In this document: positions 19,759 through 48,317 of the stretch, piece after piece | Layout of the letters: the number at the start of each line of letters is the position of its first letter | Position numbering within the stretch: the stretch's first letter is position 1 | From: Heterodontus francisci | Lineage: Eukaryota | DNA: 64,000 nt | Direction of reading: 5' to 3' | Assembly (NCBI RefSeq): GCF_036365525.1 | Contig: NC_090375.1 | Location: 199,073,864-199,137,863, forward strand | Position numbers and translations under genes: made by a program | The notes under the pieces: generated by a model | The model's input: the letters and a program-made list of their open reading frames with translations, nothing else | What the model was told of the DNA's origin: nothing | Databases searched by the model: none

Positions 19759-21913
19759 ATGTCACTGTATTACTGGTTCATTGTGGTGATCGTTTTTCCC
19801 CTGTATGTGTTTCTGATGCTATTATTCAAATGCTGTTATTCAGTCTGCTCTGTCACGCTGTTTTGCTCAAACCTTGGAACAGATTATCCCATCCGTTAGC
19901 TAAACTGCAGGTAAAACTGAAATACAAGGTGGCTCGGTCAGCAGCAATGTAGGCCCACGAAAAGCTGAAAACGGAGATATTGTCATTGATAATGGGGAAA
20001 TGGCAGACATGTTGAACAATTACTTTGCCTCAGTATTTACAGTTGAAAAGGAGGATAACTTGCCGGAAGTCCCCCCAAAAATTAATAGCTGATAGGGGAC
20101 AGGGACTTAATACAATTAACATAAATAAAACATCAGTAACAAGGAAATTAATGGAACTAAAGAGTGAGAAATCCCCAGGACCTGACGCTTTCCATCCGAG
20201 GGTGTTAACGGAAGTCGGGGAGCACATTGTAGATGCCCTAACTATAGTCTTTCAGAGTTCCCTAGATTCAGGAGTGGTCCCTCTGGATTGGAAAGTTGCC
20301 CATGTCACTCCACTTTTTAAGAAGGGTGAAAGGGGGAACCAAGGAAATTACAGACCAGTTAGCCTGACATATGTGGTGGGCAAGTTGCTGGAGTCTATAG
20401 TCAAGGATCGGGTGACTGAACACAGGCACAGCCAGCATGGCTGACAAATCTCATTGAATTTTTTGAAGAGGTGACTAAGGTAGTGGACAGGGGAATGTCT
20501 ATGGATGTTATTTATATGGACATCCAGAGGCATTTGATAAAGTCCCACATAAGAGACTGTTCACTAATGTAGAAGCTCATGGAGTTGAAGGCAAATTATT
20601 GACATGGTTAGAAAATTGGTTGAGTGGTAGGCGACAGAGAGTGGGGATAATGGGTAAGTACTCCGATTGGCAGGATGTGACTATTGGTGTCCCGCAGGGA
20701 TCTGTATTGGGGCCTCAATTATTCACATATTTCATTAACGACTTGGATGATGGCAAAGTAAGTCATATATCCAAATTTGCTGATGATACAAAGTTAGGCG
20801 GCATTGTAGACAGTCTAGATGATAGCATAAAATTGCAAAGAGATATTGACAGACTAGGCGAGTGGGCAAAACTATGGCAGATGGATTTCAATGCAGGCAA
20901 GTGTGAGATTATCCATTTTGGACCAAAAAAGGATAGAGCAGGGTACTTTCTAAATGGGAAGAGGTTAAGTACAGTGGATGTCCAAAGAGACTTGGGAGTT
21001 CAGGTGCATAGATCTTTAAAATGCCACGAGCAAGTGCAGAAAATAATCAAAAAGGCTAATAGAATACTAGCCTTTATATCTAGAGGATTGGAGTATAAAG
21101 ACAGAGAGGTTATGCTGCAGCTGTACAAAACACTGGTTAGAACCCACTTGGAGTACTGTGAGCAGTTCTGGGCACCACACCATAGGAAGGATATATTGGC
21201 CTTGGAGGGAGTGCAACGTAGGTTTACAAGAATGATACCTGGACTACAGGGGTTAAGTTACAAGGAGAGATTACACAAATTAGGCCTGTTTTTGCCAGAA
21301 TTTAGAAGGTTAAGGGGTGATCTGATCGAAGTCTTCAAGATATTAACAGGAAAGGACAGGCCAGATAAAGACAAACTATTTCCACTGGTTGGAGATTCTA
21401 TAACTAGGGGGCATAGTCTAAAAATTAGGACCAGACCATTCAGGAGAGATGTTAGGAAGCACTTCTTCATGCAAATGGTGGTAGAGGTTTGGAACTCTCT
21501 CCCACAAACAGCAGTTGAAGCTAGAACAGTTGTTAATTTTAAATCTGAGATAGATAGATTTTTGTTAAGCAAAGATATTAAGGGATATGGGCCAAAGGCA
21601 AGTAAATGGAGTTAGGCTGCAGATCAGCCATGATCTCATTGAATGGCGGGACAGGCTCGTGGGGCTGAATGGCCCACTCCTCTTCCTGTCTTCCTATTTT
21701 CCTATGTTCCTGTAACGATCCCCTTCACTGGTACCAACAGAAACCCGGCCAGGCACCCACCAAAATACTCTATTATGGGGGAAGTATATCGTGGGATCCG
21801 GGATTTGGTGAATGGTTTAAAGCCGGGAAGAGTAAAGACAATGAATTCTACCTCACAATCGACAAAATAAAGGCAGAGGACGCGGCCACTTATTACTGCG
21901 CGTATTGGGTGTA
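19759..21913 (+). pseudogene. TRGV: TRGV pseudogene V2, split by a CR1 LINE
   Basis: Leader MSLYYWFIVVIVFP at 19759 (out of phase, acceptor damaged). 5' V half CFAQTLEQIIPSVS*TAGKTEIQGGSVSS at 19859-19945 (TAA 19901-19903, first Cys missing). CR1 at ~19946-21711. 3' half NDPLHWYQQKPGQAP..DAATYYCAYWV at ~21712-21913. Confidence 0.85.
19946..21711 (+). mobile_element. CR1 LINE inserted inside V2
   Basis: ORFs 20025-20444 and 20599-21615 (GVPQGSVLGP, KFADDTKL) plus a 3' TTCCTAT-type tail. Confidence 0.9.
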
Positions 21914-21952
21914 CACAGTGTGAAACAGAAAGACAAACTCTGTGCAAAAACC
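21914..21952 (+). other. 23-RSS of V2
   Basis: CACAGTG, 23 nt, GCAAAAACC. Confidence 0.9.
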
Positions 21953-37677: not shown

Positions 37678-38122
37678 ATGAAGGGTCAAGTCATTGTGAT
37701 TTTACTCATCACCTTCCTCGGTCAGTATTTAAGGTTCTAACTGATTATTTTTATTAATCTCTCGCCTCCGTTTTGTGAAATATTATAATTGATTTCTATT
37801 CTCTCTTGCAGGGAAATCTGTTGCCCAAACCTTGACACAGTCCCCATTTTCGATGACCAGAGCTCCGACGAAAACTGTACGGTTTTACTGTACAGTTGAA
37901 GGGACAGATTTCGAAGATGCTGTTATCCACTGGTACCGGCAGATCCCGGGTCAAGGGCTGTAACGCATGCTATATTTTAAGAATCCATCTGAGACTATGC
38001 AGGATATGACCGATAAAGATTTATTTTTTGTTGAAAAAGAATCCAAAACTAAATCCTGCACCCTGCTCATGAGGAATATCGAGGAGGATGACGCTTGGAC
38101 CTATTACTGTGCCTGCTGGGAC
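37678..38122 (+). pseudogene. TRGV: TRGV segment V4 with one in-frame stop (leader 37678-37720, V exon 37812-38122)
   Basis: Manual translation: MKGQVIVILLITFL/GKSVA-QTLTQSPFSMTRAPTKTVRFYCTVEGTDFEDAVIHWYRQIPGQGL*RMLYFKNPSET..KSCTLLMRNIEEDDAWTYYCACWD. TAA at 37961-37963; splice sites intact. Absent from the ORF track. Confidence 0.88.
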
Positions 38123-38161
38123 CACAGTGACTGAAAGTGAAGGGAAACCCAGGCAAAAAGC
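38123..38161 (+). other. 23-RSS of V4
   Basis: CACAGTG, 23 nt, GCAAAAAGC. Confidence 0.88.
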
Positions 38162-45369: not shown

Positions 45370-47717
45370 TTCAACACTGCAATTCAAACATCACCAAAAC
45401 CACATCCGACTCACAACTGAAAACTGCCGAAATCTTCCTCCTTCAGTTAAAGGTTTACTCTCTCACATATCGTAAAAATTACACAAAGTAAACAGCTACT
45501 CTCACCGAGTTGTCCATTCCTTTACCTTGAGATCCGACATGGAACATCACAGGAGAAGAGGACACAGAAATGTGTCGGGTGAAATGTCCTGTTGATTTTC
45601 CCCACAGACGGTAGCCAGGCGGTGCCCAGCACGGCACTGACCCTGTCTGAGTCTTGCTCACCCATCACCCCATTGTTTTCCAGCCGCAATTGGTTCTCTG
45701 GCCCCTAACAATCGAACTGGAAATCTTGATCCTCATTTCCAAATCCTCCTCTACCCTACCTCTGCAACCTTCCCCACTTTATATCCCGGGACATGTTATT
45801 TGGTCCTCCCACTCTTGCCTCGTGTATCTCTCTGCTCCCTCATCATTCAGCCTGGAAAGTCTACAAGTTGAGATTCTTTTGCTAAACTCTCCCCTTCCAA
45901 TTTTCTCTCCAGCTTCAGAGGTTTCCACAGGAACTATCTTTTTGACGCTTTACAAATGAAGCATTATGTCCTCACCTTTCAGCAGTCTCTGTTCACTCTT
46001 CCACTCATGTTTAACTGTCATATCCCCTTTATTAGCACCTTGGTGATTTTTGAAATTAACGACAAATGAATAGGAACATAGGAACATTAGGAGACCTTTC
46101 AGTCCCATGCGTTTACTGCACCATTCAATTAAATCAAGGCTGTGTACAACTGAAGCATAACTTCTTCACTTTTGTATTCTATTTCTTTGACAGCTGTGGC
46201 TCATTGGCAACACTATCGCCTCTGAGTTAGAATGTAATGAGTTCAAGTCCCACTCCAGAAACTTGAGCATGTAATGTAGACTGACTTTCTGGTGTAGTAC
46301 TGAGGGAGTGCTGTAGTATTGAGGTAGCATCTTCCAGATGAGACATGAAACTAAGGCTCTATCTGCCCTATCAGGAGACATTACGTGTCCATGACACTAT
46401 CTTGAAGAAGAGCAGGGGAGTTACTTCTGGTGTCCTGGCCAATATTTATCCCTGCACCAAAATCATTATCTGGATTACCCAATTGCTGTTTGTGGGGTCA
46501 TGTTGTGCACAAATTGGCTGCCGTGTTTTTTTTTACATCACCACAGTGGCTACACTTCAAAAGTCTTTCTTTCTTCACTACAAAGGCCAATATTTGAGTA
46601 TCATTCTTGATTACACTTTGTTCCAGTTCCCTAGCTTTTACTCCCATGAACATCAAGATTCCATTAGACTTCTACATTTCCTAGTTTCTCACCATTAAGA
46701 AAATATTCCAGTATGTTTTTCTCTGATCGATAATGACCTCACACTTCCCCATATTGAACTCCATTTGACACAGTTTTGCCCACTCACTTTATCTCTCTAT
46801 GTCCATTTGTAATTTGCTGCTCCCATCTGCACAACTTATTGTGTCATCCACAATCTTGGACATACAGCTCCATATTCCTTTATCCACTAATATATATGGT
46901 TAAAAAAATCTGAGGCCCCATTGAGATTATTCACGAATAATCTCGTGAAAAACCTTTCCAAATACCTTCTGGAAGTCCATATAGACAGCATACATAGGCG
47001 CTTCCCTGTCCACCATGTTCGTGATTTCTTCAAAAAGTCAACTAGAACAGTTAGATGTGACCTACCCCTGACAAATCCATGCTGACTCTCTGAGCAGCTC
47101 AGTCACTCTGTCCCTGAAGACAGACTCCAGTAATCCTCCCACAATCCCTGACGCTAGGGAGCTTTGTGAAGTTATGATCAACACTCTTGTAATTTCCTCA
47201 CCCAATTTCTGGTAATACCCTGGGAAGAAACCACTAAGTCCTGGAGATTTATTTATCTGAGTTCCATTATTTCCATCATTGCAATTTTTTTGCCCAGCTC
47301 CTCTCCTTGCCTCCTTTTTGGGTTATCTGGTACCCGTTGATTCATTTGTCTATTTTCTGCTCTTCCACTGTGAAAACGGATACAAACAAGTCTGTCTGTT
47401 CGTTATTATCCTTATAATAAGGATCTGCCTTGAAATGGGTCCACAATTCCGAGCTGGTTGCTCGCCATCTTCCTATTGCCCCCAGTAGGGGGAATGAAAA
47501 GAGGTAGATTAAAAATGTCTGATAAAATCTTACATTACTCCTCCTTCTGGTGCCGGATATGTGCAGACGGCCACCCCGAGTGGTTCGAGCAAGAGGCAAA
47601 GCGCCCAGTTCATATTGGGCGAAAGTAGTCGGGGTCACTTCCTCCGAGTCTGTTGGTGCCGTTTAGTGGGGCCGGGCACAGGCGTTTCTACAGGGAACAG
47701 CCCCGGAGAAAGACAGC

Positions 47718-48278
47718 ATGTCGCCTTACTTAGCCCTGGTGCTCACTCTGTTGTCCTGTAAGTTTATCCCGAAGCAATTAAATAGTTTTAAAAAAGCACG
47801 ATGATATGCCATCGGAGGATCATATTGCACAGAAGGAGGCTATTCGGCCCATCGTGCCTATGTGGCTCGCTGAAAGAGATTCAATATCTGCAGAATCGTG
47901 TGTTGTACAGACTCTAATACCCGCATGGTTATAATGTCTCTCTCTTCTCTCTCTCTCTCTTCAGCCGCGTCTGTCGCTCCGGTGACCTTGAAACAGGAGG
48001 TTTTATCCATGACAAGGAGCGCTGGGAAGACAGCACGCTTCGTGTGCCAGATTGAAGGCTTGGACAATATAGCGACACATCCCATTTACTGGTACCAACA
48101 GAGAGGGACAGTCATCCGCGGGATCGTCCATCACCAGAGCCAGGAAACCACCTGGCTACACCCAGACTTCACCTCCCGATTCAATTTCGAAATCATGGAA
48201 GATTCTGCCATCTGCTTTCTAATAATCAATAACATTGTGCTGAGCGACACAGCCACCTATTACTGCGCCGCCAAGTCA
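47718..48278 (+). CDS. Divergent, intact V segment V6 (leader 47718-47757, V exon 47965-48278)
   Basis: Leader MSPYLALVLTLLS, GTAAGT donor, polypyrimidine-CAG acceptor at 47964. VTLKQEVLSMTRSAGKTARFVC..IYWYQQRGTVIRGI..DTATYYCAAKS. FR1 is TRGV-like but there is no CAxW. Confidence 0.85.
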
Positions 48279-48317
48279 CACGCTGGTGTTGTTTTATTGA
48301 ACCTTCGTACAAAAACC
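48279..48317 (+). other. 23-RSS of V6
   Basis: CACGCTG, 23 nt, ACAAAAACC. Confidence 0.85.

Follow-up and report, generated by a model that had tools for sequence, protein, structure and literature searches.

V6, an intact V segment of a probable seventh, strongly diverged TRGV family in the horn shark T-cell receptor gamma locus

The diversity of shark gamma chains is known from few species and has been summarised as five V genes. The sandbar shark TRGV1-5 belong to a single translocon of V and J segments with one C, as summarised in PMC7349638 and PMC5931798. The nurse shark TCR-gamma chains (ADW95910-ADW95915; P0156, P0157, P0165, P0166) share this V-J-C plan and locus type. In mammals, V-gamma residues encoded in the germline are known to bind ligand (PMC7608190), with human Vg9 as well as mouse Vg5 and Vg7 engaging butyrophilin-like ligands. 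Here we describe V6, a V segment of the horn shark (Heterodontus francisci) with an atypical germline end and second framework, in a locus of the same general plan that holds some 51 V segments, sorted into seven families, as against the five V of the sandbar shark. The window referred to below is the whole 64,000-nucleotide stretch of DNA analysed (NC_090375.1, positions 199,073,864 to 199,137,863, forward strand), and coordinates are those of the window unless given otherwise.

The TRG locus around V6

V6 belongs to the TCR-gamma locus of the horn shark. Downstream of it lie five J segments, each with a 12-RSS, and a single C exon; a C-containing gene model there shares 45% identity with nurse shark TCR-gamma cDNA over 314 columns, and a MENTAL-domain gene is found ~50 kb 3' beyond on the opposite strand; these three features together identify the locus as TRG. 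STARD3NL occupies the equivalent (3', inverted) place at other TRG loci (PMC7349638). A survey of 664 kb around the window (G000:C5:199073864-199137863) returned 53 V-like clusters, which were merged by eye to ~51 V segments and sorted, also by eye, into seven families labelled A to G. The V segments span G000:C5:199063847-199475272 and are ten times as many as the five of the sandbar shark. Family A occurs by itself at the 5' end, and a B-C-D-E-F-G unit is repeated in tandem, with losses, along the remainder.

Several features of the locus were recorded in passing. Six of eight family-D copies (labels by eye) appear broken, V2 (19859-21914) carries an insertion that splits FR1/CDR1 from FR2 as well as a stop in its 5' part, and V4 (37820-38161) has an in-frame TGA in FR2. 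V6 is filed in RefSeq as an 'uncharacterized protein', and XP_067888795.1 (44904-48335) fuses V5 and V6 through RSS read-through, an annotation artefact. A degenerate telomere-like tract of the CCCTAA type, ~730 bases long, lies between J1 and J2 (L036:1485-2212). Additionally, a multicopy V family on the small contigs C761, C407, and C1675 (L080, L081, L091, L095) has 23-RSS, an FR2 that is also one residue short, and a very short CDR2 containing a Cys.

Family G comprises four copies: V6, one further intact copy, and two that are truncated after CDR1. The other intact copy, 98% identical to V6, is the V nearest to the J segments and has five coding differences from V6, of which three are synonymous.

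Gene anatomy, unusual residues, and phylogenetic placement of V6

V6 has the anatomy of an intact V gene. On the + strand, a leader exon of 13 codons plus one base (47718-47757, phase 1, GT donor) is followed by a GT...AG intron (47758-47964, acceptor AG at 47963-47964), inside which lie a CT tract and, near 47816-47870, a short piece derived from a repeat, and by a V exon (47965-48278) with an open frame and a predicted V-set fold; spliced together, leader and V exon encode a 118-aa product. The leader, splice sites, and open frame are thus as the original prediction had them. The codons for Cys23, Trp41, and Cys104 are at 48045, 48090, and 48264, respectively. The exon is followed directly by a 23-RSS (48279-48317) made up of the heptamer CACGCTG (48279-48285), a 23-bp spacer, and the nonamer ACAAAAACC (48309-48317), which faces 12-RSS J segments as expected of a TRGV. 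Spacer length and perfect nonamer had been correctly called; the heptamer, at two mismatches from consensus, is a departure that had passed without remark. Both intact family G copies retain CAC, the length of the spacer, and the nonamer. Germline microhomology between V6 and the J segments extends to three bases at most, and none of it is convincing. As a separate observation, a CTCF-like 14-mer with two mismatches lies at 47482-47495, ~235 bases 5' of the V6 start, and is present in both intact copies (without a chance control); a scan of the 664 kb gave 137 such matches at two or fewer mismatches, none directly 3' of the V6 RSS (without a shuffle control).

The oddities that first drew attention to V6 were partly borne out. 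Its germline 3' end encodes C-A-A-K-S (48264-48278), giving YYCAAKS without Trp107, and the six other segments of the window end in CAYW or CACW as described. Across the locus, Trp107 is absent from 2 of 36 RSS-bearing V segments, namely V6 and its copy; the other 34 end in C-x-x-W. The residue is common without being required, as mouse TRGV4 ends in CSYG (PMC11630817). The FR2 (48084-48131) is indeed one residue short, with 16 residues as compared to 17 in sister families; the missing residue falls at the apex of the turn between C and C'. Within it Y40, G52, and H55 differ from the sister families and Y42, Q44, and I50 are kept. IYWY is likewise present in V6, although the IHWY ascribed to the other segments is not uniform, V2 having LHWY. 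A long CDR1 had also been claimed; at 14 residues between Cys23 and Trp41 it is no longer than that of family C, an equality that was missed because V2, the family C member in the window, is broken. FR1, which had been likened to V4 and V1, has its closest matches in family C, at 12-13/21, and family E, at 12/21; the family of V1 reaches 9-10/21. FR1 carries the TRG-type KTARF motif found also in the nurse shark chains.

Nucleotide identity of family G to the other horn shark TRGV families is 55-67%, and its amino-acid identity to families A-F and the nurse shark cDNA families is 28-41%. A nucleotide identity of ~75% is the usual threshold for a V family; applied here together with a C-x-x-W end, it leaves family G outside A-F and the nurse shark families on both counts. 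V6 is most similar to TRGV families B and C, at 36-41% identity, as compared to 24-31% for non-TRG rows. With a mean amino-acid identity to sister families of 35%, versus 37-45% for the others, family G is the most divergent horn shark TRGV family, though by a small margin. Since FR1 is closest to C and E, and FR2 and FR3 to B, V6 could also be seen as chimeric, with its 5' part from family C and its 3' part from family B; the margins are small, and this origin was set aside.

Two trees were computed, one of 85 rows and 103 columns and one of 40 of those rows, in which the labels of the non-TRG and most 'TRG-like' rows reflect a reading of motifs and RSS rather than database labels. In the 85-row tree, the two G orthologues (V6 and a bamboo shark counterpart, below) group together at 100/100, on a stem that is the longest among shark TRGV families, outside the group of IgH, IgL, and TRA/D V. 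In the 40-row tree, G is part of a group of 20 TRGV rows supported at 83/82; monophyly of TRGV including G has support of 63/62 and occurs in 68% of bootstrap trees, from a bootstrap that had not converged. AU tests (four tests, uncorrected, 103 columns) rejected a union of G with IgH (p 0.025), with one IgL group (0.034), and with the short-FR2 V L080 (0.035), and did not reject its union with TRA/D V (p 0.081). Both best trees place G among TRGV, with weak support and with the TRA/D union standing at p 0.081, and the proposal that V6 represents a V lineage of its own within TRG is supported, given the 100/100 clade and the bamboo shark counterpart.

Orthologue, transcripts, and competing explanations

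The bamboo shark protein GCC19575.1 (chiPu_0000080, P0003; 'hypothetical protein') is the orthologue of V6, with 70% identity. Both have the short FR2, lack Trp107, and carry a Trp on strand C''. The bamboo shark model differs in being partial, without the start of FR1, in an FR3 two residues shorter, and in its CALT end. No further orthologue was found among the best 150 of 237 matches in a 50%-identity library. The V6 pair is identical at 56 of 81 positions, exactly as is family C between the same two species, and this equal conservation points to selection on family G at the protein level. The locus tag of a bamboo shark family-B TRGV model neighbours that of GCC19575.1, the contigs of the two models being equal in length, and fusion of the G model to J and C suggests that G may be J-proximal in the bamboo shark too. 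The V-J join of this model reads into an apparent RSS (HVTVV versus HAGVV) and is thus no proof of rearrangement; it looks like a splice artefact of the gene model.

Expression data consisted of assembled contigs from three runs (X1, X2, and X3) of one sample, whose RNA nature was guessed. J-C spliced contigs and V ends joined to J occur in X1 and X2, which are therefore likely to be RNA with rearranged gamma transcripts. Contigs cover the V6 exon in all three runs (47994-48277, 48032-48277, and 48109-48272), those of X2 and X3 match the base of the window copy at 48252, and V6 is likely transcribed. The contigs end at 48272-48277, just short of the coding end, a separate low-depth contig begins at the heptamer, and the leader and the unique intron of V6 are without contig cover. 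These features fit rearranged mRNA but, coming from one study and contigs only, were not counted as evidence; nor, for the same reason, was the lack of contig cover over J4. One X1 contig extends past the RSS with the letters of the J-proximal copy and may be germline transcript or DNA. Among the loose-end rows listed (8 of 12) there is no V6-J junction, all four V-side rows ending in a CAYW-type V. Family F, whose heptamers are also non-consensus, is found rearranged. Two side observations concern the same contigs: a T>A at 48216 in one X2 contig (Phe to Ile, residue 84), absent from both germline copies, X1, and X3, could be hypermutation, an allele, or an error; and a contig (L036:3601-4061) that begins ~410 bases upstream of J5 and runs into the C exon resembles a germline J-C transcript.

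We favour, with a probability of roughly 0.7, the reading that V6 belongs, as an intact segment, to a strongly diverged seventh TRGV family whose joining, splicing, and delta pairing are ordinary. RAG would likely join V6, under the 12/23 rule, to one of the five J segments that follow, the V6 heptamer possibly lowering its use, and the V6-J exon would likely be spliced to the single C-gamma. Family G may be a distinct TRGV family and not a new type of receptor. Another explanation, a V from another locus (TRA/D, Ig-like, or NAR-type) moved into TRG, draws on the Trp-less end, which resembles TRA/D and TRB ends, and on the unrejected TRA/D union; the closer identity to TRGV B and C than to non-TRG rows, KTARF in FR1, the presence of C' and C'' strands, and the place of G among TRGV in the best trees make it very improbable. 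VNAR and NAR-TCR V domains have lost the C' and C'' strands and CDR2. V6 keeps the two strands, and its interval of 57 residues from Trp41 to Cys104 lies in the 54-58 range of its sister families; this identity was rejected. An IgH-like V of the kind used by TCR-delta was rejected as well, on the AU result for IgH (uncorrected) and an identity to IgH V of 24-25%. TAILV, by comparison, is a sequence clade located in the TRA/D locus, and V6 lies in TRG.

Were G a relic whose frame is open but which seldom or never rearranges, transcribed solely in germline form, one would understand the non-consensus heptamer, the truncation of two of the four copies, the contig that runs past the RSS, and the want of a junction among the rows listed. 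Conservation across two shark orders at the level of an expressed family, the otherwise intact RSS of both copies, and the rearrangement of family F in spite of its heptamers weigh against such a relic, which we consider distinctly unlikely. Alternatively, G could be an innate-like V-gamma specialised for a narrow choice of delta partner or for a ligand site encoded in the germline, by analogy with the mammalian cases. In the CDR1 core (48057-48083) 7 of 9 residues are identical between the two sharks, versus 4 of 14 for families B and C together (Fisher p 0.036, post hoc, one species pair); four rim positions have changed together, the stem is the longest among shark TRGV families, and G has kept a low copy number and its J-proximal place. 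Nonetheless, CDR2 and FR3 of G are no better conserved than those of B or C, its mean identity is only slightly lower than that of its sisters, and the core interface residues are kept, and we regard such a specialisation as unlikely. The fuller proposal, in which G would be an undescribed, galeomorph-old V-gamma lineage whose fixed CDR1 and remodelled interface rim would mark an innate-like gamma-delta T cell subset with its own germline ligand or an unconventional delta partner (NAR-TCR/IgH-V delta), we hold to be quite unlikely.

Whether G has already been described as a shark or skate TRGV family, for example as the J-proximal V of the sandbar shark, bears on novelty and not on mechanism. 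The five expressed sandbar TRGV are described with V5 as the most 5' (PMC7349638), which would give V1 the J-proximal place that G holds here, and three or more V-gamma families are given for the nurse shark (PMC5931798). On the other side, of two word-limited protein searches with V6, one returned 0 of 1 candidates and the other 2 of 37, the two being gene models, and the four nurse shark gamma cDNA proteins compared belong to families A and C, neither of which V6 matches. A query with C-gamma (15 matches) retrieved no Carcharhinus or Raja protein, so the absence of such proteins from the V6 searches says little. In the literature covered, which lies outside the primary sandbar shark and skate V-gamma papers, neither the TRG locus of the horn shark nor a shark V-gamma without the Trp is described. 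As the sandbar shark and skate families are known here by description, the family of V6 may already have a name; we judge an earlier description possible, if doubtful.

Predicted structure and comparison with known receptors

The AlphaFold2 model of V6 (42 aligned sequences) has a pLDDT of 92 and the complete V-set strand order, in which a tight turn connects strand C (40-46) to strand C' (49-57) and C'' (60-63) is present. The deletion in FR2 is thus predicted merely to tighten the C-C' turn. The matches from Foldseek and VIA are V domains in general and give no guide to the type of chain; against human Vg9 the model gives Z 14.2 and an rmsd of 1.6 A over 98 residues, a tie with many antibody V domains. 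By IMGT position, we take Y42, Q44, the hydrophobic residue at 50 (I50), and Y103 to be the core V-V contacts kept in V6, with F118 to be supplied by J. The changes H40Y, R52G, Y55H, and W107K presumably lie at the rim of the interface. Altered chain pairing or ligand mode, the inference originally drawn from these residues, finds no direct support, with the core interface kept, a normal V-domain model, and precedents in ordinary TRGV; altered pairing is unsupported, though conceivable, and on this single-domain model V6 probably pairs normally with a delta chain. The chain is predicted to adopt the usual geometry, the rim changes perhaps giving the binding site another floor beneath CDR3 and not abolishing pairing.

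None of these oddities is unique to V6, as each has a precedent. Human TRGV9 (PDB 8ZJX, 1HXM) is the best TCR match of V6 in the PDB and shares Y40 (VYWY). V49-I50 replaces the PGQAP/L motif in Vg9 as it does in V6, although Vg9 keeps Pro46, and the two are not sisters in our trees. Unlike V6, Vg9 presumably also keeps Trp107. The gar protein MBN3324669.1 (P0103), which is TRGV-like, combines a short FR2 with the absence of Trp107 yet does not group with G, so that both changes apparently arose there independently. Mouse TRGV4, with its CSYG end, likewise does without Trp107 (PMC11630817). Among sharks, the nurse shark chains of family C resemble V6 in the length of CDR1 and the proline at its end, and the nurse shark TCR-gamma chains differ from it in an identity of 33-41%, a 17-residue FR2, and the presence of H40, R52, Y55, and Trp107.

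If family G is merely one more divergent TRGV family, the gain is better annotation and an indication that Trp107 and a full FR2 are dispensable, as mouse Vg4 suggests for the Trp. A conserved seventh family with an altered binding-site floor would also be a marker for asking whether innate-like subsets defined by V-gamma exist in sharks, and an innate-like G, if that reading were true, would be the first shark counterpart of the specialisation of the mammalian Vg9/Vg5 type.
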